Origin: a virus
Lineage: Duplodnaviria; Heunggongvirae; Uroviricota; Caudoviricetes
Virus record (IMG/VR): IMGVR_UViG_2541047752_000007
Span: 1-52,139 of that record
Strand: one strand, 5' to 3'
Length of the DNA: 52,139 nt
Shown here: piece after piece, positions 7,860 to 24,708 of the stretch
Layout: each line of letters begins with the position of its first letter
Numbering within the stretch: position 1 is the first letter of the stretch
Made by a program: the position numbers and the translations under genes
Notes under the pieces: model-generated
The model's input: the letters and a program-made list of their open reading frames with translations, nothing else
Databases searched by the model: none
Told to the model about the DNA's origin: nothing

Positions 7860-8507
7860 ATGAAAACAAAATGGTATGACTTAGCAAAGCAGCTCATGCG
7901 GGCGCAGGGCATGAGCCAGGATTCGCTCGCGGATCGTATGGGGATAACTAAAGGCGGCCTGTCACACTGGCTGAACGGTCGCCGAGAGCCAAATCTTGAA
8001 GATATTGCGCGGATTATGCGCGAGCTTGGTCGTCGGCAGTTTACTGTTACACATGATGGCATGGTCATTGATGATTCTGTTTCTAATACACTTCAGGCCG
8101 TGCCGCCGCGTGATTTAGGTAGTTACCCGGTTATTGACTGGAAGGACACAGTAAACAATATGGATGACGCAAGGCGTTCAGCATTACGACACGTTACGAC
8201 TAGCGTTATTTGTTCAGATGACAGTTACTGGCTGGTTGCCAAAGGTGAATCAATGAACGCGCCGCAGGGGTTGAGCATCCCGGCGGGGACGATGATACTT
8301 GTGGACCCGCACGCGCCAGCTATTGACGGCAAACTGGTTATAGCCCAGCTTGAGGAAGGGCAGATACCGACGTTTAAACAGTTGATTATTGATGGAGGTC
8401 AAAGGCTTTTACGTTCGCTCAATCCGCTGTATCCGCCAATCCCTATGAATCCAGAATCAAAAATTATAGGCGTGGTGGTTGATGCGAAGATCGTAAACCT
8501 GCCATAA
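7860..8507 (+). CDS. CI-like phage repressor (HTH_XRE plus S24 LexA-like peptidase)
   Basis: 215 aa; N-terminal HTH MSQDSLADRMGITKGGLSHWLNGRR; C-terminal GESM (Ser) and VVDAK (Lys) autocleavage dyad. Confidence 0.85.
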   Translation: MKTKWYDLAKQLMRAQGMSQDSLADRMGITKGGLSHWLNGRREPNLEDIARIMRELGRRQFTVTHDGMVIDDSVSNTLQAVPPRDLGSYPVIDWKDTVNNMDDARRSALRHVTTSVICSDDSYWLVAKGESMNAPQGLSIPAGTMILVDPHAPAIDGKLVIAQLEEGQIPTFKQLIIDGGQRLLRSLNPLYPPIPMNPESKIIGVVVDAKIVNLP

Positions 8508-8630: not shown

Positions 8631-8659
8631 TTGACTCGATGTTTTACGGGGCGTATATT
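8631..8659 (+). promoter_or_regulatory. strong sigma70-like promoter (pL-like) for rightward early operon
   Basis: TTGACT-N17-TATATT; immediately preceded by the recurring tatacaaaatgga motif. Confidence 0.55.
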
Positions 8660-9007: not shown

Positions 9008-9298
9008 ATGAGCGTTACAATTATATATGGTAAATGTGATAGCAAAATGAATGCCAGGGAACGCAGAAGGATAAAAAGAGAAAACGAAAGAAAATCATCA
9101 CCTGCAATCAATAAAACAGACAATGTGGATAAAGCTATTCGATTTGCAAACGAGGAAAGATGCAAACCAAATAGCATTAAAGAACGTCGCAAAGGATCAG
9201 TAAAATGGTATACGGAAAATGAAAGCGGCAGCTACTACCACGCAACGCAACCACGCCATTTAGGGGAAAAACCCCTGGATAAAGTCCGCTACCATTAA
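9008..9298 (+). CDS. basic protein with arginine-rich N-terminal motif, possible N-like antiterminator
   Basis: 96 aa; NARERRRIKRENERK resembles an arginine-rich RNA-binding motif; first gene after promoter and long leader. Confidence 0.35.
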   Translation: MSVTIIYGKCDSKMNARERRRIKRENERKSSPAINKTDNVDKAIRFANEERCKPNSIKERRKGSVKWYTENESGSYYHATQPRHLGEKPLDKVRYH

Positions 9299-16262: not shown

Positions 16263-16422
16263 TGTTTACAAAATGGCGTCATTGTGTGATGTGGATCACA
16301 TAATGGCGCTTTATTGTTTGTTCGCATGTATCCGTTTTGTATACTTCAAACAAACAAAATGCTCTTTAAAAATCCGGTAACGCTGAAATGCGTAAAAATC
16401 ACCTGAAAAAGGAGAGAGCATT

Positions 16423-16613: not shown

Positions 16614-17219
16614 ATGCAAAACCCTAAGAAACCAATAAGACGCCGTTGCAAATGCTGCGGCGTTTTTTTTGAGCCTAAATATCACAACCAGACGTGGTGC
16701 AGTGAAGAATGTCTGGAAGAACTGAAATTTGATCAGCTATGCCGCGACCGTGAAAAGGCAATGAAGGCGATGGAACGGAAGAAACGCCGTGACAGCCAGC
16801 GCGAGGAACGAAACCGGAAGCGGAAACAGTTAAATCCGCGCAGCTACTGGATCAAGCAAGTTCAAAATGTATTTAACGCCTATATCCGCGAACGTGACGC
16901 GCGGTTGCCGTGCATATCCTGCGGGACTTACTACGGTGAGCAATGCGGGTGGGATGCCGGACACTATAGGACGGTTGCCGCTGCCGGACACCTTCGCTTT
17001 AACGAAGATAATTGCCATAAACAATGTAGACACTGCAACCAGACGTTAGACGGCAACATCGGAGGTTATCGCCCGGCACTGATTAGAAAAATCGGCCTCG
17101 CCAGGGTGGTAGCACTGGAGAACAACAACGATACGCACAAATGGACGATCGCAGAATGTAAGGAGCTAATAAACATCTACCAGGCGAAATTGGACGCCTT
17201 AAGGAGAAAGGCAGCATGA
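16614..17219 (+). CDS. ninG: NinG/Rap recombination protein
   Basis: Start at MQNPKK; RRCKCCGVFFEP, PRSYWIKQ, LPCISCG, WDAGHYR, LRFNE, HKQC align with remembered lambda NinG. Confidence 0.8.
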   Translation: MQNPKKPIRRRCKCCGVFFEPKYHNQTWCSEECLEELKFDQLCRDREKAMKAMERKKRRDSQREERNRKRKQLNPRSYWIKQVQNVFNAYIRERDARLPCISCGTYYGEQCGWDAGHYRTVAAAGHLRFNEDNCHKQCRHCNQTLDGNIGGYRPALIRKIGLARVVALENNNDTHKWTIAECKELINIYQAKLDALRRKAA

Positions 17220-17619: not shown

Positions 17620-17801
17620 ATGAAAAACGAAATTAAAGATCTGCAAATAGACATTCAGCGCGACGAGCGTGATTTAGCCACAGTTCGACAAATTCAGGCT
17701 TTTCACATGTGAGAATTACTTGCACTGAAAGAGTTTGAGAGAAAGCTGGTGCAATCAATTTCTGATCGTAAACGCCTTATTGCTCGTTACGGGGGCAAAT
17801 A
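17620..17801 (+). pseudogene. coiled-coil small ORF interrupted by in-frame TGA
   Basis: MKNEIKDLQIDIQRDERDLATVRQIQAFHM, TGA at 17710, then same frame continues ELLALKEFERKLVQSISDRKRLIARYGGK to TAA at 17800. Confidence 0.3.
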
Positions 17802-18530
17802 ATGAATTTAGAATCCATTCTAAAATTCCACTTTCCCAAATCACCGCGATTGTCAGACGAAAGCAGGGGAACATCACCTGATGCACTTAATACGACGGAT
17901 GCGCTTACCGCCGCTGGTATGGCGCAATCGCGCGTAGCGCTTGGTTACAGCGCTTTTTTGGGGAAGATGGAACTATCGCAAACTGAAAAACACAGGGCCG
18001 TAGTTTTGCTTACAGAGCGTTTAAGAGCTATGGCAAAAGATTACGAATACGTTATGGAGTTGGACGATGAGCGACGCAATGATCTTATTATTCTTGTTGC
18101 CGTTTTCGCGTTTCGGGATTACTGCCAGAGTGCGGCGACCGAAAAGGTTTGCCCTAAATGCGGTGGAAACGGGCTTTTACCGCATCCATGCTGCGAATAC
18201 ACATCAACGGTTTGTTCGCGGTGCAACGGGAAAGGCTACGTTAAAAACCATTGCCAGCGGTGCAAAGGGCGCGGCGAGATACCGGATAAAGCAGCCAGTG
18301 AAGCAGCGGAAATGCCAGTTTTCAAAACGTGCCAGCATTGTGGCGGGCGCGGGTACTCGCGTTTCCCGGTAGATCTTGTCCGACAGGCGGTTAATCAGCT
18401 TGTTTTCCCGGTAAGCCGATCAACATGGTGGAAGAAATACAGGGTTTTCTATGAGGACGCCATAGCGGAGCTATTTAAAGAAGAAGCCCGCGCGGAAAGC
18501 GAAATTAAACGAGTGACACGGGGTGAATAA
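17802..18530 (+). CDS. Q-like late-gene antiterminator
   Basis: 242 aa; four CxxC pairs (CPKCGGNG, CSRCNGKG, CQRCKGRG, CQHCGGRG); follows ninG-rusA. Confidence 0.7.
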   Translation: MNLESILKFHFPKSPRLSDESRGTSPDALNTTDALTAAGMAQSRVALGYSAFLGKMELSQTEKHRAVVLLTERLRAMAKDYEYVMELDDERRNDLIILVAVFAFRDYCQSAATEKVCPKCGGNGLLPHPCCEYTSTVCSRCNGKGYVKNHCQRCKGRGEIPDKAASEAAEMPVFKTCQHCGGRGYSRFPVDLVRQAVNQLVFPVSRSTWWKKYRVFYEDAIAELFKEEARAESEIKRVTRGE

Positions 18531-18732
18531 TGACAAGTTAGAAATAAACGATCAGTTTGCCGTTATATTGTTCGAAGATAAAACTGGCGGCGCATGGTGT
18601 AAGAGAGTCACTGGTGCAGAAGCGCGTTTAATATTAGGTATGGCAAGCGCGTTAAACGAAGGAGAATTACCCGCCATCCCTGTTAAACCAGTCCACATCT
18701 ATAAACGGGGCGACGATGATGAAAATAATTAA
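18523..18732 (+). CDS. hypothetical protein
   Basis: 69 aa, GTG start overlapping Q stop. Confidence 0.3.
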   Translation: MNNDKLEINDQFAVILFEDKTGGAWCKRVTGAEARLILGMASALNEGELPAIPVKPVHIYKRGDDDENN

Positions 18733-19066
18733 TATTGGGTGGCTGTATTGCGAAAACTGCGACGACGACGGCATGGTTGTTAAAACTGAAAAAGGCTGCG
18801 GCTTCATACTGTATCAAGATGATAAATTTGTTTGCCCGCGATGCGGTGGTCGTGGTGAGATAGAGATCGTTGATGATATTGCTACCGCACCCAAGCCATC
18901 GCGCATTGTCCTTGATGAAAAAATAAAAATTCATCCTGATTTATTACAGCAAATTATCGATCACGTATCGGCAGCCGCAATCTATAGCGATAACAATTAT
19001 CAGCGTGAAATGAACGTCAAACGTGCGCTTAATCAGTATTTTAAGGGTGACGATGATGAAGCCTAA
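18716..19066 (+). CDS. hypothetical zinc-ribbon protein
   Basis: 116 aa; CENC...CPRCGGRG. Confidence 0.4.
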   Translation: MMKIINIGWLYCENCDDDGMVVKTEKGCGFILYQDDKFVCPRCGGRGEIEIVDDIATAPKPSRIVLDEKIKIHPDLLQQIIDHVSAAAIYSDNNYQREMNVKRALNQYFKGDDDEA

Positions 19067-19328
19067 ATTAAAAGAACATGTTTACCGCCAGTTGGTTAAC
19101 GAGTTGGCTGACACGGCCCGCCATTACGCCGGAACACAACAGCTACGCGGTCGGCTATCTTCGGTTGTTAACCGTTATATTGATGCTGGATGCCATCGCA
19201 AAGGTGAAATTACGATGGACGAGGCAATCAAGCGCCGGACGGCTGAATGGTCAGTGAGTAATACCGGATTAACCGGATACATTGAAGGCTATAACGACTG
19301 TTTACAGGATCATGGCGATGGCAAGTAA
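19053..19328 (+). CDS. hypothetical protein
   Basis: Frame of ORF 19023-19328, ATG at 19053. Confidence 0.35.
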   Translation: MMKPKLKEHVYRQLVNELADTARHYAGTQQLRGRLSSVVNRYIDAGCHRKGEITMDEAIKRRTAEWSVSNTGLTGYIEGYNDCLQDHGDGK

Positions 19329-19626
19329 AGATCTACATTTAAACCTGAAAGGAGAATACTTTTACGCCATCCGGGCGGGAAAGAAGGTGGAGGAATACCG
19401 ACTTTATAATGACTATTGGCGTAAACGCCTGAAAGGGCGGGAATATGAACGCCTGATAATCAAGCTGGGGTATCCAGCCAGCCACGAAACACACCGGATC
19501 ATAAACCTGCCTTATTTCGGGTATGAAGTGAAAACTATCACACATCCATTGTTCGGCCCTGATCCTGTTAAGGTATTCGCAATTAAATGTGATGTGAATT
19601 GGATGTTAAGGTGGGGTGAGCAATGA
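19318..19626 (+). CDS. ASCH-like (PUA-fold) protein
   Basis: LNLKGEYFYAIRAGKKVEEYRL fits ASCH N-terminal pattern; weak. Confidence 0.35.
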   Translation: MASKDLHLNLKGEYFYAIRAGKKVEEYRLYNDYWRKRLKGREYERLIIKLGYPASHETHRIINLPYFGYEVKTITHPLFGPDPVKVFAIKCDVNWMLRWGEQ

Positions 19627-19838
19627 AAAAAGCTGGCCTATCAATTAGCCGTGTATTGTGCGGTGACGAAAACGAGATCCGCATAGAAATTAAATTTAGC
19701 ACAGGTAAAGAGATAATCCTTTACACGACACCTGAAAACCTGACGCTGGCGCTTACTGGTAAATCTGAAACGCCGTGCGACGTCCGGTTGCGCAATATTG
19801 AAATTAAGGAATTAAGGAAGGTGAAAGATGAAAAGTAG
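19623..19838 (+). CDS. hypothetical protein
   Basis: 71 aa ORF. Confidence 0.35.
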   Translation: MKKAGLSISRVLCGDENEIRIEIKFSTGKEIILYTTPENLTLALTGKSETPCDVRLRNIEIKELRKVKDEK

Positions 19839-20028
19839 AATGAAACGCATGGTAAGAGCTTACGATAAGGCTTTAATGGTTTTTGATGATTTGCGACGCA
19901 ATAAGCGTGAGCGTCGTAAATGGGCGCGTTTATTCGCGAAAGAATGGCACGAAGACGATGCGACAATCGACTGTCAAAAAGACGCTGACGAATTAGCTGA
20001 CGATAACGTTTATTATATGATGTGGTGA
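19828..20028 (+). CDS. hypothetical protein
   Basis: 66 aa ORF. Confidence 0.35.
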   Translation: MKSRMKRMVRAYDKALMVFDDLRRNKRERRKWARLFAKEWHEDDATIDCQKDADELADDNVYYMMW

Positions 20029-20032
20029 CAAC

Positions 20033-20398
20033 ATGCAAATAATCATTGATTACCTTTGCCATGCAGCAAATACACTTTTCGGTTTTTATCAACAACCTTT
20101 CCTTAAAGAGTGGGATTCGATGTTAAACGATATCCTCGACAAAGGATTAATAATGGAGGTTGACGAGCTTACAATCAAAATTAATTATGAAGGTGAAGAA
20201 TATCAAATTTGGGTGGGTAATAGATGGTATTCATACGGTCATATTTATTCAATTGGTGGTAAGTTCATTAAAAGAAACCAGGAATTCAGACCGCGCTTCC
20301 GCACAATGCGCCGACTACATAACCTGCATATGAATCTATTTGAAGACCAGGAAGCACGGGAACTATTCAAGATCTACGGAGATAAATCATGGAGCTAA
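20033..20398 (+). CDS. hypothetical protein
   Basis: 121 aa ORF. Confidence 0.4.
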   Translation: MQIIIDYLCHAANTLFGFYQQPFLKEWDSMLNDILDKGLIMEVDELTIKINYEGEEYQIWVGNRWYSYGHIYSIGGKFIKRNQEFRPRFRTMRRLHNLHMNLFEDQEARELFKIYGDKSWS

Positions 20399-20619
20399 AA
20401 ATCTGGAAGGCTATCGACGTAGTTGATAATGAGTTAAGTATGTTTGCCACTGACGGAAAGCGCGCGGTGATCGCCACATGGACGCGTAACCATGATGATA
20501 TCGCTTTTCGTCGCAAGGCTGCGGAGTGGCTTTTCTCTGATGGCGGCTACACGATGAACATCGCCCAGCTTGCCAGAATGAAGGATGAAAAGCTGGTAGA
20601 CAGCTACACAACTGCATAG
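20389..20619 (+). CDS. hypothetical protein
   Basis: 76 aa ORF. Confidence 0.35.
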   Translation: MELKIWKAIDVVDNELSMFATDGKRAVIATWTRNHDDIAFRRKAAEWLFSDGGYTMNIAQLARMKDEKLVDSYTTA

Positions 20620-20629
20620 CGGGGTAAAT

Positions 20630-20863
20630 ATGCGTATCTATGAGCACAAGCGGGATAAAACCCGCTTTTTTGTTCGTGCTGGCGTTGCATACCAGTATCA
20701 CGAATGCGGATACATTGAGGCGCTTGCTTACGATCTGGATTTCGAGCAGGAAAAAGAATGGTTCGATTTCAAAATATACCGCAAGCGTAAACCAACGCGC
20801 TACGAGCGCCACGCTATCCGGGACTTTTTAATCAGCATTGAGCGCTGGGGGACAGAAGAATGA
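20630..20863 (+). CDS. hypothetical protein
   Basis: 77 aa ORF. Confidence 0.35.
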   Translation: MRIYEHKRDKTRFFVRAGVAYQYHECGYIEALAYDLDFEQEKEWFDFKIYRKRKPTRYERHAIRDFLISIERWGTEE

Positions 20864-21138
20864 GAACAAAGAAAACAGCAGATCAGAAAGCGTTAGTTAT
20901 CGCTACAACGGATGTATCGTTATTCACGAAGGGTGAAGAGATAGATCTTAAATTGCTTTTTGGAATGTTTGAGCCACACGAAAAGCCGTGGTTCGTACAT
21001 GAAGATAAACAAGGCAATATGCGCGTAGTAGTGCCTGACAGTAAAAGCGATATATTTTTTGGTATTCCAGATCCGTTACATGACGGTGAGATGTTGGCGG
21101 TGTTGTTGATCTCTGATGCTGTTACTTATAAGGGGTAA
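20860..21138 (+). CDS. hypothetical protein
   Basis: 92 aa ORF. Confidence 0.35.
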   Translation: MRTKKTADQKALVIATTDVSLFTKGEEIDLKLLFGMFEPHEKPWFVHEDKQGNMRVVVPDSKSDIFFGIPDPLHDGEMLAVLLISDAVTYKG

Positions 21139-21140
21139 AG

Positions 21141-21368
21141 ATGAAAGTCAAATTCTTGCACGATCACGGTTATCCGTCATTGAAACAGGTTGTTGGTAAG
21201 GTCGTTAATGTCGTTCATAGCGATGATGTCACTTGCATGATTAACGGTGCTGATTTAATCGCCGCTGGCGCTGATGATCATTACATCAATCCGGCGTGGT
21301 CGTATACGTTCAGCCTGGGTGACTTCGTTGGCGACAAGGGGCGCGGGCTGCAAGTGGTCGAGGGTTAA
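21141..21368 (+). CDS. hypothetical protein
   Basis: 75 aa ORF. Confidence 0.35.
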   Translation: MKVKFLHDHGYPSLKQVVGKVVNVVHSDDVTCMINGADLIAAGADDHYINPAWSYTFSLGDFVGDKGRGLQVVEG

Positions 21369-21371
21369 TAT

Positions 21372-21621
21372 CATGGACGTTTACGAAGATCTATACCTTC
21401 AGACGAATACCCACACTTTTTATTTTTTGAAAAACGGCGTTGTATATCGCAGCGACGACGGGATGGTAATGAAGGAGTGGTTATTTAAGCGTAAAGACCT
21501 ACTCGACGATCTGGTTTTTGCCGGGATATTTCGTAAACGTCCGGCTAACCTGGAAGAAGAAATGTTGATTGAGGTAATTAAAAATGAAAATCAGGGTAAG
21601 TTATTTCCGGGCGAAAGATAA
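21372..21621 (+). CDS. hypothetical protein
   Basis: ATG 21372 within ORF-track frame 21274-21621. Confidence 0.35.
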
Positions 21622-21835
21622 GGCAACAGGAAAGCAGATGGCGATCCTGGTTAACGAGGCCAATTATATGTTTGTACTTCGGCCGTGGTGCATAGCTGAC
21701 TATAACGATGATTATCGTCGTCACGGTGCGCGGAGTGCGGTAGGCATGAAAGGCTGGCAACCGCGCGACATGGAAAACTATTGTGAATGGAAATTAGTAG
21801 CAAAATACACTGTCGATTATAAAGGTGTTTTCTGA
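21584..21835 (+). CDS. hypothetical protein
   Basis: 83 aa ORF. Confidence 0.35.
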   Translation: MKIRVSYFRAKDKATGKQMAILVNEANYMFVLRPWCIADYNDDYRRHGARSAVGMKGWQPRDMENYCEWKLVAKYTVDYKGVF

Positions 21836-21838
21836 TTA

Positions 21839-22207
21839 ATGTTACTTTCACGGAAGATATGCGAACCAGTGGGGCAAATGACCCCATCAAGCCAGAAGGG
21901 TTTAATCATGAAAAGCGATAAATTCATTGCGTGCTGTTTTGTTGAAGTGCCTAAAGGTGATGCCTTCTGCGATTATGAATTTAAAGACAGTTGGGGAAAA
22001 TCTCATGTTGTAGTTGGCAAGCGCGGAGACTGGTTATACATAACAGACGACGACATGATTTTTACTGCAAACCAGTTATTCAAAATTAAGTCAGAAAATA
22101 GTGAAACGCCACTTTGCAGCATGTTTAACATGCATTATCACTCACTATTATTGTTAAAACAAGATGTTATAAATAAAGCGCGTAGCTTACCTGGTGCGGA
22201 GTTTTAA
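21839..22207 (+). CDS. hypothetical protein (start uncertain, possibly ATG 21908)
   Basis: 122 aa ORF; better RBS before MKSDKF. Confidence 0.35.
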   Translation: MLLSRKICEPVGQMTPSSQKGLIMKSDKFIACCFVEVPKGDAFCDYEFKDSWGKSHVVVGKRGDWLYITDDDMIFTANQLFKIKSENSETPLCSMFNMHYHSLLLLKQDVINKARSLPGAEF

Positions 22208-22230
22208 TTTATTACGAAGGGGAATAATAA

Positions 22231-22554
22231 ATGTCTAAATTTATCAGCGTTAAGGTTTTTCGTGGCAATTTTCCAGAAGATAAAGAAATTGGACAATTCG
22301 CAGGTGAACGTGGCGTATGTTTCCGTGTAGCTACTGAAGACGATGCGCACGTTAAATGCTTTCACGTATCTGAACCGCCTTTTAATGCAGACCATCTTGA
22401 AGACCTGAATAGAATTAAAAGCCTTATTTTTGCCTATCTGGCGTTCCCTGGCATAGCTAATGCTGATGTGGGATTGGTTGGAGCTGAACTAGTGGCAGAA
22501 TATAAAATGACTGAAGGAGAAGAAGGGGGAATTAAAATTGAGCGCATCAAATAA
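22231..22554 (+). CDS. hypothetical protein
   Basis: 107 aa ORF. Confidence 0.4.
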   Translation: MSKFISVKVFRGNFPEDKEIGQFAGERGVCFRVATEDDAHVKCFHVSEPPFNADHLEDLNRIKSLIFAYLAFPGIANADVGLVGAELVAEYKMTEGEEGGIKIERIK

Positions 22555-22792
22555 GGTATACAAAATCAGGTGTAAAGGTGAATACCCTGGCTTTACGACT
22601 GGTTGCGAATACCTGGGCCACATTGGATACGGTCCTTTCGGTGAGTTAGGGATGAATACGATTGATGACGATGGCGACAGCAGGACGCTTGGTCTTGATT
22701 CTGATGATTTCGAATACATCCCGCCGATAACTTACCGCGACGTTGATGATTTCATGGCTGAACATGACGACGAGGACGATGATTATGATTGA
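22538..22792 (+). CDS. hypothetical acidic protein
   Basis: 84 aa, Asp/Glu-rich C-terminus. Confidence 0.35.
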   Translation: MSASNKVYKIRCKGEYPGFTTGCEYLGHIGYGPFGELGMNTIDDDGDSRTLGLDSDDFEYIPPITYRDVDDFMAEHDDEDDDYD

Positions 22793-22985
22793 ATGCCTTA
22801 TTGCTGTGACTGTTTTGCTTTATATCGCTGGCGCGATCCTGATGTCATGTTTTATTAAGTTTAGCGGTGCCGAACATGGTGGACTTGAGATTCCTTTTTG
22901 GCCTGTGACTGTGTTTATCGCTTTCTTCGACGCTACGGCAGAGCAAATCAGGCGAGCCATTAAGGAGCGTAAAAATGGGAAATAG
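22785..22985 (+). CDS. small membrane protein (two TM helices)
   Basis: MIECLIAVTVLLYIAGAILMSCFIKF...; GAGGA RBS. Confidence 0.35.
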   Translation: MIECLIAVTVLLYIAGAILMSCFIKFSGAEHGGLEIPFWPVTVFIAFFDATAEQIRRAIKERKNGK

Positions 22986-23172
22986 CGACCATGAATATGA
23001 TGGCGTTTATCAGTCATTGGCTACGCGAGCTTATTACCGCCTCGAAGGTGAGCACGTTTTGATGCGCCTCGGTAGTCTTGATCGGTGGCATGAGCCATTT
23101 TTACCTATGACAGCGAAAGAAGTTATCACGATGGTTAATCATAGATACTGGCGCAAGGTTGGTGATTTGTAA
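22975..23172 (+). CDS. hypothetical protein
   Basis: 65 aa ORF. Confidence 0.35.
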   Translation: MGNSDHEYDGVYQSLATRAYYRLEGEHVLMRLGSLDRWHEPFLPMTAKEVITMVNHRYWRKVGDL

Positions 23173-23235
23173 CCATAATCGCGCATAAAAAACAAATAGA
23201 TTAAAATATTTCCTAACAATGCGAAATTGTAATTG

Positions 23236-23257
23236 CCCGGCCACGCGCCGGGTTTTT
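23236..23257 (+). terminator. rho-independent terminator immediately upstream of holin (tR'-like)
   Basis: cccggc-cacgc-gccggg followed by ttttt. Confidence 0.5.
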
Positions 23258-23278
23258 GCTTTGTTGGAGGTAAATCTA

Positions 23279-23478
23279 TGTTCGACAGAATACGGGAGGC
23301 GTGCGCGTATGTGACTGGGGCCGTAACTGCTTTTTTCGGCGCGATAACCATCAATGACATTGCCGTCTTTGTGGGTATCTTATCAACCGTAGGCACATTT
23401 GCCGTCAATTATTACTTCAAATCACAGGAGAACAAGCGAGCGCAAGAGGAACACGACGCGCGAATGGGGAATAAGTAA
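23279..23478 (+). CDS. class II holin (pinholin-like)
   Basis: 66 aa, two predicted TM segments and charged C-terminus; GGAGG RBS; directly precedes SAR endolysin. Confidence 0.6.
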
Positions 23479-23971
23479 CATGATTAGCCAATCGCTGAAG
23501 AATAAGATTATTGCTGCGGCGGCTGGTGGGGCGATCGCTATTGCGGCGGTGATGGTTAAACCATTAGAGGGCGTGGAGTACGATCCCTATCGTGATGTTA
23601 TCGGCGTATGGACCGTTTGCTATGGTCACACCGGAAAAGACATCATGCTTGGTAAGACTTACACGCAATCAGAATGCGATGCTTTGTTAAACAAGGATCT
23701 CCACAAAACCGCAAAAGCGATTGACCCCTATATTAAAGTCGAAATATCAGATTTTACCCGCGCGGCGCTTTATTCATTCGCCTATAACGTAGGTGCAACC
23801 AATTTCAAAACATCAACCTTATTAAAACTACTCAATGACGGCAAGAAATCAGAAGCGTGCGCACAGCTTAAACGCTGGGTATACGCTGGCGGTAAGAAGT
23901 GGCAAGGCCTGGTAAACCGCCGCGAGGTTGAATATGCCGTTTGCGAATGGGGGGAAACGTGGACAAGGTGA
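23479..23971 (+). CDS. SAR endolysin (T4-lysozyme-like, phage 21 R-type)
   Basis: N-terminal SAR segment [15 protein letters not shown]; [34 protein letters not shown] nearly identical to remembered phage 21 endolysin. Confidence 0.85.
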
Positions 23972-24429
23972 AGGCGTTAATTATCGCCGCTGTTGTTTGC
24001 ATTATTGCCGGACTGACCGCCGTAACATGTTATTACCAGGGTGAGGCGGCAAGGTTACAGGAAGAAGTCACGGTAACGAAAGGCGCACTGAAAACGGCAA
24101 GTAACACTATTCAGCAGATGAAGGAGCGAAACGCCGAACTGTCAAAACTTGATAAGAGGTATCACGATGAGATTAAAGCTATCAGATCTGACATTGCCGA
24201 TCTGCGCACTGGCATTGATAACGGTACTATCCGGTTGCGCGTCAACGCAATACCCGTGCGAGTGTCCGACCCCGCCGCGACCGCCAGCCGCATTGATGGA
24301 GCCACCTGCGAGCTTGATGCCACTGCTAGACAATCTTATCTATCCCTCAGAGAACAACTAAAAGAGAAAGACGCACAGATCACTGGCCTACAGGACTACA
24401 TCAAAACTCAGTGTTTACGCAAAGAATAG
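23947..24429 (+). CDS. i-spanin (Rz-like)
   Basis: N-terminal [16 protein letters not shown] then coiled-coil; start codon uncertain (ATG 23947 or GTG 23959). Confidence 0.6.
24167..24361 (+). CDS. o-spanin (Rz1-like) embedded in +1 frame of Rz
   Basis: [24 protein letters not shown] lipobox then Pro-rich [13 protein letters not shown]; AAGAGG RBS. Confidence 0.6.
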   Translation: MRLKLSDLTLPICALALITVLSGCASTQYPCECPTPPRPPAALMEPPASLMPLLDNLIYPSENN

Positions 24430-24708
24430 CAGCGCGTTGACGTGTCGCCGTTTCTGTCAGCCAGCCATAACCTGGCCAATCCTTCCCGCGAGCGACGGCG
24501 GAATAGTCAAAAACACGTAATACCGGATCAACAGTCCCATTAACAGGTCAGGCGCTACCTGGGTAGAAGAAAGCGCCATTCACCAATTTTATAAAATTCT
24601 GGAAACGGTACTGATGAAGCGCCGTTTTCAGTGTTTTATAACTGTTTTCACTCCCTGCGGTGTCGAGTTTTGCGGGGGTTATATTTTTCAGAATAGGAGA
24701 TTATTCTG

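Follow-up and report, generated by a model that had tools for sequence, protein, structure and literature searches.

In the 52,139-nt stretch of DNA analysed here (hereafter, the window; IMG/VR virus record IMGVR_UViG_2541047752_000007, a member of the Caudoviricetes), the gene for a Q antiterminator of the lambda family is separated from the lysis genes by a block of small genes, and the only conserved non-coding element in this part of the window, one that resembles the late promoter regions of lambda and P22, is located not next to the Q gene but directly before the holin gene. Probably, although far from certainly, to judge from the sequence, the late promoter has been displaced, so that the Q-dependent switch is split and the apparent target of Q lies 4.7 kb from the gene that encodes it, directly before holin. 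The observations behind this proposal, all made by sequence comparison, concern the family of Q, the gene order, the mosaicism of the block, the conservation of the pre-holin module and the likeness of its layout to PR' regions. All coordinates are those of the whole window, and all features are on the + strand unless stated otherwise.

The window represents a prophage that belongs to the mEpimmI (mEp021-like) coliphages, a published group. The region from Q to the lysis genes (hereafter, the Q-lysis region) matches mEp010, mEp013, mEp021, mEp044, mEp515, mEp554 and MagusPhagus with 86-89% nucleotide identity, and its gene order is common to the window and these seven deposited phages; a prophage of Escherichia coli strain M15 is 99.9% identical to the window in the same region, and regions of this type are found in 35 of 5,426 complete E. 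coli genomes. According to the accessible text of the published description, the mEpimmI phages are Nus-dependent temperate siphoviruses that, by recombination or hybridisation, are not lambdoid, and that carry a CI-like repressor, an N-like antiterminator, Gp17, with three nut sites, and a Q-like protein, the accessory genes being clustered in a 'regulation cluster' (PMC11893012). That text, to the extent that it is accessible, neither places a late promoter or a target of Q nor mentions that Q is set apart from the lysis genes (PMC11893012).

A preliminary description of this DNA, made from the letters alone, had pointed to a Q-like gene at 17802-18530, and the searches leave little doubt about this assignment: the product matches the Pfam family PF03589 (Antiterm; E 1.4e-30, 105.7 bits, with a cut-off of 26.7) and phrog_127 (E 1.5e-78), and aligns end to end (240 aa) with lambda Q at 33% identity, the N-terminal segment included. 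In lambda Q, the N-terminal segment forms the RNA-exit nozzle (PMC9388147), and both this nozzle segment and the C-terminal helix-turn-helix part are conserved in the window Q. The main difference is in the zinc-ribbon arm, where lambda Q lacks 33 aa that in the window Q include two added CxxCxGxG motifs, four in all; the enlarged, DnaJ-like arm with its four motifs is encoded by 18140-18270 (approximately residues 114-160). Every member of the group has a Q gene, for which the two main alleles encode 242 and 240 aa. The arm is the most variable part of the protein within the group; the C-terminal DNA-binding part is almost invariant, which matches the invariance of the proposed target before holin. 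The SE1Spa-like Q proteins, the nearest ones outside the group (39% identity), carry an even longer insertion at the same place of the arm.

Antitermination by Q is a textbook switch. By definition, the lambda-Q cassette consists of the Q gene followed by PR', the pause element and a terminator (PMC9388147), and annotations usually follow this definition. The same arrangement was observed in a comparison set of 50 IMG/VR loci with the Q proteins nearest to that of the window outside the group (36-41% identity): all 50 contain a good -35 hexamer, a 17-bp spacer, a -10 hexamer, 5-6 nt, the sequence (C)TAAC(G/A)nT and a hairpin with a T tract, and in all 50 this promoter module lies within ~60 nt of the Q stop codon, so the premise of the preliminary description that Q normally adjoins PR' is sound. 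In the window and its relatives, the sequence after Q is of a different kind. The Q stop codon overlaps the start of the next open reading frame (ORF) in every relative, leaving no intergenic space; nucleotide diversity, which is 0.03-0.14 across the 3' half of Q, jumps to 0.25-0.45 directly after the stop codon, and the comparison of diversity among the relatives revealed no conserved non-coding element 3' of Q. A consensus scan found no + strand promoter-like or terminator-like match around 18300-18700 either. Two alternatives had been put forward for the separation of Q from holin, namely, an unusually long Q-modified transcript and a late promoter displaced far from Q; the first of these draws no support from the region after Q, where such an element is missing, whereas the second is favoured by the invariant module before holin.

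The 105 bp before holin comprise the only sizeable non-coding gap between 18.5 and 23.3 kb. From ~23189 to the holin ATG, this sequence is nearly invariant in 9 of 9 relatives retrieved by BLAST with the whole region, and three different ORFs abut it there. The module has the order TAAAAT-ATTTCC-TAACAAT-GCGAAAT followed by a hairpin and can be read as a candidate -10 hexamer, a predicted start site with a sigma-dependent pause element, and a terminator (Table 1). The conserved AAACAAAyrGAT between the candidate -35 and -10 hexamers occupies the position of the lambda Q-binding element (QBE), which adjoins the pause element (PMC9388147). An exact-motif scan of IMG/VR detected the module in 43 contigs; because a scan of this type is biased towards the motif, the conservation was retested on loci chosen through the Q protein alone. 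Among these, TAAAAT, 7 nt, AACAAT-GCGAAA and the hairpin were found in all 28 loci that extend far enough, the sole change being one spacer base in two loci. Outside the searched motif, the diversity is ~0.06, compared with 0.13 at the third codon positions of holin, and the stretch is kept even though at least five different ORFs abut it in the wider set of relatives.

The module keeps its distance from holin, 78-80 nt to the ATG or 89 nt in the case of a variant holin that is 55% identical; the distance from the Q stop codon to the module varies between 1.9 and 7.1 kb in the group and is 4.67 kb here. The loci with the variant holin (L043, L049 and L068; IMG/VR 2700989400_000004, 3300045988_076772) have another context of the ribosome-binding site (RBS) and the same module and terminator. 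Because the module is kept beside such a divergent holin, it is not simply hitch-hiking with the holin gene.

The hairpin that closes the module had been reported in the preliminary description as lying about 20 bp before the holin RBS. It is real and is followed by a T tract, but it is closer to the gene than that: only 12 nt separate the end of the stem of GCCCGGC-CACGC-GCCGGGT (23235-23253; six G-C pairs) from the RBS, and ~24-25 nt separate it from the holin ATG, with the T tract extending into the RBS. The local fold has an energy of -17.5 kcal/mol (z = -3.2); among the relatives, the stem arms never vary and the 5-nt loop has at least six variants. In the deposited records, the same hairpin is listed under TERM_5 for mEp021, with a score of 100, and under the ARNold predictions T8-T10 for other phages. 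The terminators t1, t2 and t5 of the group are described as experimentally demonstrated in the accessible text (PMC11893012). In the numbering of the mEp021 record, TERM_1 follows the repressor and TERM_5 is the pre-holin hairpin, and by this numbering t5 is probably the pre-holin hairpin.

The likeness to lambda and P22 encompasses the -10 hexamer, the 6-7 nt that follow it, AAC(G/A)AT, the GC-rich hairpin with its U tract and then holin, endolysin, Rz and the structural genes. In lambda, the sequence is TTGACT-17-TAAATT-TGACTC-AACGAT, and the hexamer at its end, which is -10-like and spans +1 to +6, serves as the pause element; P22 has the same layout, with Plate, qut, the start site and tR' from +31 marked in its record; in SE1Spa, the nearest relative outside the group, the corresponding sequence is TATCAT-AACCC-TAACAGT-AGAAAT. 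A short terminated leader is found in P22 as well (~60 nt), whereas the one predicted for the window is ~42-47 nt long. Besides the distance of 4.7 kb between the Q gene and the promoter, which are adjacent in lambda and P22, there are further differences. The -35-like TTGACT that immediately precedes the pause element in lambda has no counterpart in the window; the terminator, which in lambda and P22 is followed by 300-400 bp before holin, starts at ~+21 in the window and leaves 25 nt to the holin ATG; and the -35 hexamer, recognisable in lambda, P22 and the comparison loci, is weak in the window.

This last point belongs to a series of observations that speak against a late promoter before holin. 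The hexamer TCGCGC is a poor -35, and with a rough position weight matrix the promoter scores a total of 7.0 bits, a value reached or exceeded at 371 positions of the window; the commoner allele (TTGTGG or TTGTAG) scores 11.0 bits, compared with 11.4 for SE1Spa, 13.7 for lambda and 9.4 for another comparison promoter. The consensus promoter scan calls neither allele, yet it calls the SE1Spa promoter. The pattern TAnnnT-N5-6-TAACrnT by itself is not rare, with 2 occurrences seen and 2.3 expected in the window; in the early and lysis region, the only + strand TAAC-type pause motif is the one at 23202. Phage records, IMG/VR and genome contigs yielded no Q protein of 41-84% identity with which co-variation of Q and its site could be tested, and the alleles of the Q arm are not associated with those of the promoter-upstream sequence, all four combinations being found. 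Finally, the hairpin begins ~21 nt after the predicted start, compared with +31 in P22 and ~+150 or more in lambda, and at so short a distance Q might not load in time. As a class, terminator-like and promoter-like consensus matches are not enriched in the region; the pre-holin element is significant because it is conserved, not because of the consensus scan.

The sequence just upstream of the conserved core (23173-23201) comes in two main alleles, CCATAATCGCGCATAAAAAAC... and CCGTATTTGTrGGkCGwAAAC..., which differ exactly over the candidate -35; the phages with the variant holin have a third allele. MagusPhagus, a viable phage, carries the allele with the weak -35. Several other candidates in or near this stretch were considered and rejected. 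One alternative -10, CATAAT at 23174, lacks a -35 and is not preserved in the commoner allele; another, TGTAAT at 23228, ends in C instead of T in about half of the relatives and would place the start within the hairpin. A minus-strand promoter in the conserved stretch was discounted, given that its hexamers are weak and that there are no genes on that strand for it to drive; the leader could be taken for a nut site, with a boxA-like CCUAACAAU and a boxB-like CAAU-GCGAA-AUUG, but the stem is broken by A-C or A-G in the commoner allele. A search for a late promoter after the lysis cassette (24430-24708) gave nothing convincing.

In the scenario that we infer, in which promoter activity, the start site, pausing, Q binding, the efficiency of termination and the expression class of the block are all predictions, the Q gene would belong to the end of the early-right operon, and its target, consisting of the late promoter, the Q-binding region, the pause element and the terminator, would reside in the conserved ~100 bp before holin. 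The late promoter would span 23179-23207, with the start near A23215, the pause element AACAAT at +1 to +6, the hairpin at +21 to +39 and the U tract reaching ~+47. Without Q, polymerase that starts at the late promoter would yield a leader of ~45 nt that ends 20 nt before the holin ATG; with Q, polymerase would be modified at the pause and would go on to transcribe holin, endolysin, Rz/Rz1 and the genes for packaging and morphogenesis. If the promoter is indeed before holin, then the 18 ORFs between Q and the module would be early rather than late genes, namely, the tail of the early operon that would begin at the PR-like promoter near 8.65 kb, outside the late transcript. This operon would be transcribed by polymerase that has been modified by the N-like Gp17 at the nut sites, and such modification would explain the passage of the internal hairpins at 16644 and 20648. 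Effectively, the block would be a counterpart of the lambda nin region that is located behind Q.

The strongest rival to the displaced late promoter, which we regard as unlikely but deserving of serious consideration, is that the pre-holin hairpin is merely the last terminator, or attenuator, of the early-right operon and is passed by N-type read-through. Under this explanation, there would be no late promoter before holin; the late genes would be reached from PR by Gp17-dependent antitermination, Q would act elsewhere, or in an auxiliary capacity, or by loading on the arriving polymerase, and the pre-holin stretch would be kept for some other reason. The organization of the early region is compatible with this possibility. 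Nearly all ORFs of at least 110 aa beyond ~8.7 kb are on the + strand; there is an N-like system with an extra nutR2-like site just before NinG, RusA, Q and the block, nutR2 being described for the mEpimmI group in the accessible text (PMC11893012); and the hairpins at 16275, 16644, 20648 and 23235 imply processive antitermination in any case. The first of these hairpins (16275-16310), located 3' of a methyltransferase gene, has 16 bp, is very strong (-26 kcal/mol) and is the counterpart of TERM_4 of mEp021, and the second (16644-16662) is a terminator-like hairpin within the 5' end of NinG; the two flank the nutR2-like site, which thus comes after one terminator and before the next. The poor -35 and the failure of the consensus scan to call a promoter also fit a plain terminator. 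What such a role does not account for is the invariance of TAAAAT and TAACAAT. Moreover, Q is conserved in all members of the group, with a nearly invariant DNA-binding part, and a Q protein of the lambda family requires a DNA site beside a sigma-dependent pause near the promoter (PMC9388147); the only conserved non-coding element has exactly the layout of such a site.

In a bolder reading, to which we assign a still lower probability, Q would act wholly in trans in this widespread group of gut coliphages, kilobases away from its gene, on a promoter with a deliberately weak -35 and with a terminator 25 nt from holin; in the radical form, TAAAAT/TAACAAT would not be a self-sufficient promoter at all but a site where Q is loaded on polymerase arriving from the early operon, or one that needs a further phage factor; the block would then be a delayed-early island that is co-expressed with Q and evolves by cassette exchange. 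Action in trans would contrast with lambda Q, which is encoded beside its target and for which a cis-preference has been reported.

It is quite improbable that the pre-holin stretch, instead of being a promoter and Q site, exerts its effect mainly on the RNA and governs how holin is translated or how stable the mRNA is, for example with the hairpin as a stabiliser, processing site or small-RNA target. The hairpin and the T tract do run straight into the holin RBS, the stem is conserved whereas the loop is free to vary, and the module is at a fixed distance from holin. However, in two to three loci the module is retained although the holin is only 55% identical and the RBS context differs; the upstream part shows no conserved pairing, given that the CAAU-GCGAA-AUUG stem is broken in the commoner allele; no Rfam match was obtained, and a canonical GC stem with an adjoining U tract is the hallmark of a terminator. 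Even less credible is a late promoter at or within the 3' end of Q, with the 18 ORFs at the head of a very long late transcript, along which Q-modified polymerase would ignore the pre-holin hairpin as an internal terminator: this arrangement would be the canonical one (PMC9388147; 50 of 50 comparison loci), and the presence of the o12 homolog in mEp021 virions would fit late expression, but the Q stop codon overlaps the next start, with no intergenic space in between, there is neither a + strand promoter or terminator match nor a TAAC-type pause motif around 18300-18700, diversity rises right after the Q stop codon with no conserved element, and a block of 8 to ~28 genes whose first gene varies is hard to square with a fixed Q-loading site and terminator.

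The preliminary description had counted 19 small ORFs between Q and the lysis genes; a run of small ORFs on the same strand is indeed present, but we find 18, of 65-121 aa, mostly overlapping or abutting, at 18523-23172 (Table 1), and the PGAP annotation of the M15 prophage likewise has 18 between Q and holin. PHROG families are matched by 16 of the 18 (14 of them at E <=1e-23; the matches of o02, at 4.6e-5, and o18, at 5.3e-5, are weak), so most appear to be real, recurring phage genes, although nearly all of these families are of unknown function. A presence/absence matrix was compiled for 22 loci in which Q and the pre-holin region are both present. Five ORFs (o08, o09, o11, o12 and o13) are found in all 22, o07 in 21, and the other twelve in 6-19; the block ranges from eight ORFs (1.9 kb) in mEp021 to ~28 (7.1 kb) in some prophages, its first gene differs among relatives, and at least five different ORFs occupy the position of o18. 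Judging from these comparisons, the block is a mosaic with a conserved middle, o07-o13, and exchangeable small genes on either side.

The block shares with the lambda nin region the dense array of small, mosaic and mostly dispensable ORFs on one strand, the embedded terminator-like hairpins and the position downstream of a nut site, in an operon with N-type antitermination. The nin region itself is a set of small, non-essential ORFs between P and Q that are transcribed from PR under N antitermination and contain internal terminators; the block of the window, which would likewise be early, differs in that it comes after Q, and none of its 18 ORFs matched a named Nin family in Pfam, NCBIfam or PHROGs. 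NinG and RusA homologs precede Q in lambda, as in the window. In Stx-converting phages, too, kilobases of accessory genes lie between Q and holin. In these and other lambdoid phages, however, PR' and tR' stay beside Q, and the cargo is downstream of the terminator, Q-dependent and late, whereas in the window the module stays beside holin and the cargo is upstream of the module. Morons in the strict sense have their own promoter and terminator; the ORFs of the block do not qualify, because they overlap or abut and the whole block contains just three promoter-like matches on the + strand, all weak and less numerous than in shuffled sequences.

Searches of Pfam (also with relaxed thresholds), NCBIfam and PHROGs produced only noise with regard to functional families for the block ORFs, and PADLOC, applied to o01-o10, gave no meaningful defence match; the anti-defence or host-takeover role that the preliminary description had suggested for such blocks is a guess. 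Three proteins had been singled out in the preliminary description. The zinc ribbon of o02 holds up, with a CxxC...CxxCGGRG motif and a weak match to DnaJ_CXXCXGXG. In addition, o02 shares VCPxCGGxGE with the Q arm (BLASTP E 0.002, a short match), a resemblance that could be a chance likeness of zinc knuckles or could mark o02 as a fragment derived from the Q arm. The ASCH-like character of o04 is weakly supported. The match to the Pfam ASCH profile is below the cut-off (E 0.15, 13.2 bits; cut-off 21.2). Its AlphaFold (AF2) model has a pLDDT of 88, and the top 15 fold matches in the PDB, which include 3iuw, 2z0t, 1xne, 5gus, 1wk2 and 2dp9, are all ASCH/PUA-like, albeit weak (E 0.04-0.7, TM score 0.34-0.54); a sequence search of the PDB is marginal, and homologs of o04 are named ASCH, RNA-binding or DUF3850 by their sources (ASCH or RNA-binding at NCBI). 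The structure-based annotation that had been suggested for the small ORFs gave these weak matches in the case of o04 and failed for o12, the model of which (pLDDT 58) is unusable. Of the two transmembrane segments attributed to o17, one is a clear hydrophobic segment, and the second is only moderate in the hydropathy profile.

As for o12, its homolog in mEp021, gp41, was found by mass spectrometry in virions purified in CsCl, according to the accessible text (PMC11893012). In mEp021, gp41 is encoded outside the structural cluster, and the homologs of o12 are confined to the phage group (at least 67% identity). The same text, as accessible, suggests that gp41 may be RegA-like (PMC11893012). Homologs of other block genes are found in different settings: that of o04 adjoins xis/int, in the early-left operon, in a Salmonella prophage; those of o05 occur in Stx phages and in virulent Dhillonvirus phages; and those of o11 occur in virulent rV5-like phages. 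By analogy, these occurrences loosely fit an early or host-directed role.

Table 1. Features of the Q-lysis region and its context in the window
Feature	Coordinates	Strand	Basis and remarks
Repressor homolog	7911-8504		context feature
PR-like promoter match	8631-8659		context feature
N-like Gp17 homolog	9008-9295		context feature
nutR2-like site (boxA TGCTCTTTAA and hairpin with A-rich loop)	16360-16395	+	sequence; 5' of NinG, RusA, Q and the block
Q antiterminator, lambda-Q family, 242 aa	17802..18530	+	PF03589, phrog_127, lambda Q alignment
o01, 69 aa	18523..18732	+	phrog_35000, E 1.7e-39; 18/22 relatives; opens at GTG
o02, 116 aa, zinc-ribbon (CxxC...CxxCGGRGE)	18716..19066	+	DnaJ_CXXCXGXG, E 0.0012, weak; 10/22
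o03, 91 aa	19053..19328	+	phrog_29262, E 4.4e-39; 19/22
o04, ~104 aa, candidate ASCH/PUA-like fold (putative RNA-binding)	19312..19626	+	phrog_625; 15/22
o05, 71 aa	19623..19838	+	phrog_1222, E 1.8e-29; 6/22
o06, 66 aa	19828..20028	+	phrog_8758; 19/22
o07, 121 aa, conserved middle	20033..20398	+	phrog_16975, E 1.6e-56; 21/22
o08, 76 aa	20389..20619	+	phrog_38280, E 1e-52; 22/22
o09, 77 aa, holds internal hairpin	20630..20863	+	phrog_30442, E 2.4e-52; 22/22
Terminator-like hairpin AAGCGGG-ATAAAA-CCCGCTT followed by TTTTTTGT	20648..20675	+	inside o09, codons 7-15
o10, 92 aa	20860..21138	+	phrog_33175; 14/22
o11, 75 aa	21141..21368	+	phrog_5009; 22/22
o12, 82 aa, mEp021 gp41 homolog	21373..21621	+	95% identical to mEp021_41; 22/22
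o13, 83 aa	21584..21835	+	phrog_38609, E 3.4e-59; 22/22
o14, 99 aa	21908..22207	+	no family match; 17/22
o15, 107 aa	22231..22554	+	phrog_23107, E 4.5e-62; 19/22
o16, 84 aa (46 aa by PGAP start), acidic C-terminus	22538..22792	+	phrog_25234; 19/22
o17, 66-80 aa, small membrane protein	22743..22985	+	phrog_10061, hydropathy profile; 17/22
o18, 65 aa, last ORF before the regulatory stretch	22975..23172	+	phrog_15318, weak; 10/22
Candidate -35, TCGCGC	23179..23184	+	poor here; commoner allele TTGTGG or TTGTAG
17-bp spacer ATAAAAAACAAATAGAT, conserved part AAACAAAyrGAT	23185..23201	+	candidate Q-binding element, by position only
Candidate -10, TAAAAT (5/6 consensus)	23202..23207	+	invariant in 9/9 BLAST-selected and 28/28 Q-selected relatives
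TAACAAT: predicted start A 23215, sigma-dependent pause element AACAAT at +1 to +6	23214..23220	+	sequence match, invariant
Intrinsic terminator (tR'-like), 7-bp stem, 5-nt loop, then TTTTGCTTTG	23235..23262	+	fold, conservation, independent annotation
Holin RBS, GGAGG	23266-23270	+	
Holin, class II, HP1 family, predicted first late gene	23278..23478	+	PF16080 (Phage_holin_2_3), E 1.6e-14; phrog_20
Endolysin	23480-23971	+	PGAP: lysozyme
Rz spanin	23959-24429	+	PGAP: i-spanin Rz
Rz1, embedded in Rz	24149-24361	+	

The pre-holin hairpin had been described as the only strong terminator in this region, which is not the case, given that a comparable, conserved hairpin is located at 20648, within o09. 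This hairpin (20648-20667, followed by TTTTTTGTT) has a fold energy of -18 kcal/mol (z = -4.1) and is nearly invariant at the nucleotide level; in one relative, a compensatory synonymous pair (CGG to CGC together with ACC to ACG) keeps the stem, and in another, a C-to-T replacement in the stem retains a G-U pair. ARNold predicts the same hairpin in mEp554, as T9. The o09 hairpin may be an internal attenuator of the early operon.

At the 3' end of the block, the lysis cassette is where the preliminary description had put it, with the holin ATG at 23278 followed by endolysin and Rz/Rz1, and the terminase, portal, head and tail ORFs come downstream of the lysis genes, all on the + strand. Around the Q gene, the window has two peculiarities. 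The 60-aa ORF that overlaps the start of Q in all relatives (17620-17802) has a premature TGA at 17710, where the relatives have an Arg codon, and the M15 prophage shares this premature stop. A one-base deletion (GG to G) at 18530-18532, compared with M15 and all relatives, puts the usual ATG of o01 out of frame, and the reading frame of o01 is open only from GTG 18523; the deletion could be either a sequencing error or an inactivating change. In the whole window, there were no Rfam matches at gathering scores, and a tRNA scan detected none.

If the promoter call is wrong, then the region between Q and holin would be an ordinary accessory block with an ordinary terminator at its end. If it is right, some 18 accessory genes would have to be moved from the 'late' to the 'early' class, and the guesses as to what they do would shift towards host takeover or anti-defence and away from virion or lysis functions; provided that the promoter is correctly placed, early expression of the block fits the timing of host takeover, which says nothing about the function of any of its genes. 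The predicted leader of ~45 nt would offer a compact model for how soon after the pause Q can override a terminator, and the search for late promoters in prophage annotation would change. Most generally, adjacency of the gene and its target would not be required in the lambda-Q family, and a natural, prevalent group of phages would be at hand in which the two are uncoupled by a variable island of 2-7 kb. Such uncoupling, which we have not found described in the accessible literature, would be characteristic of the published group as a whole.

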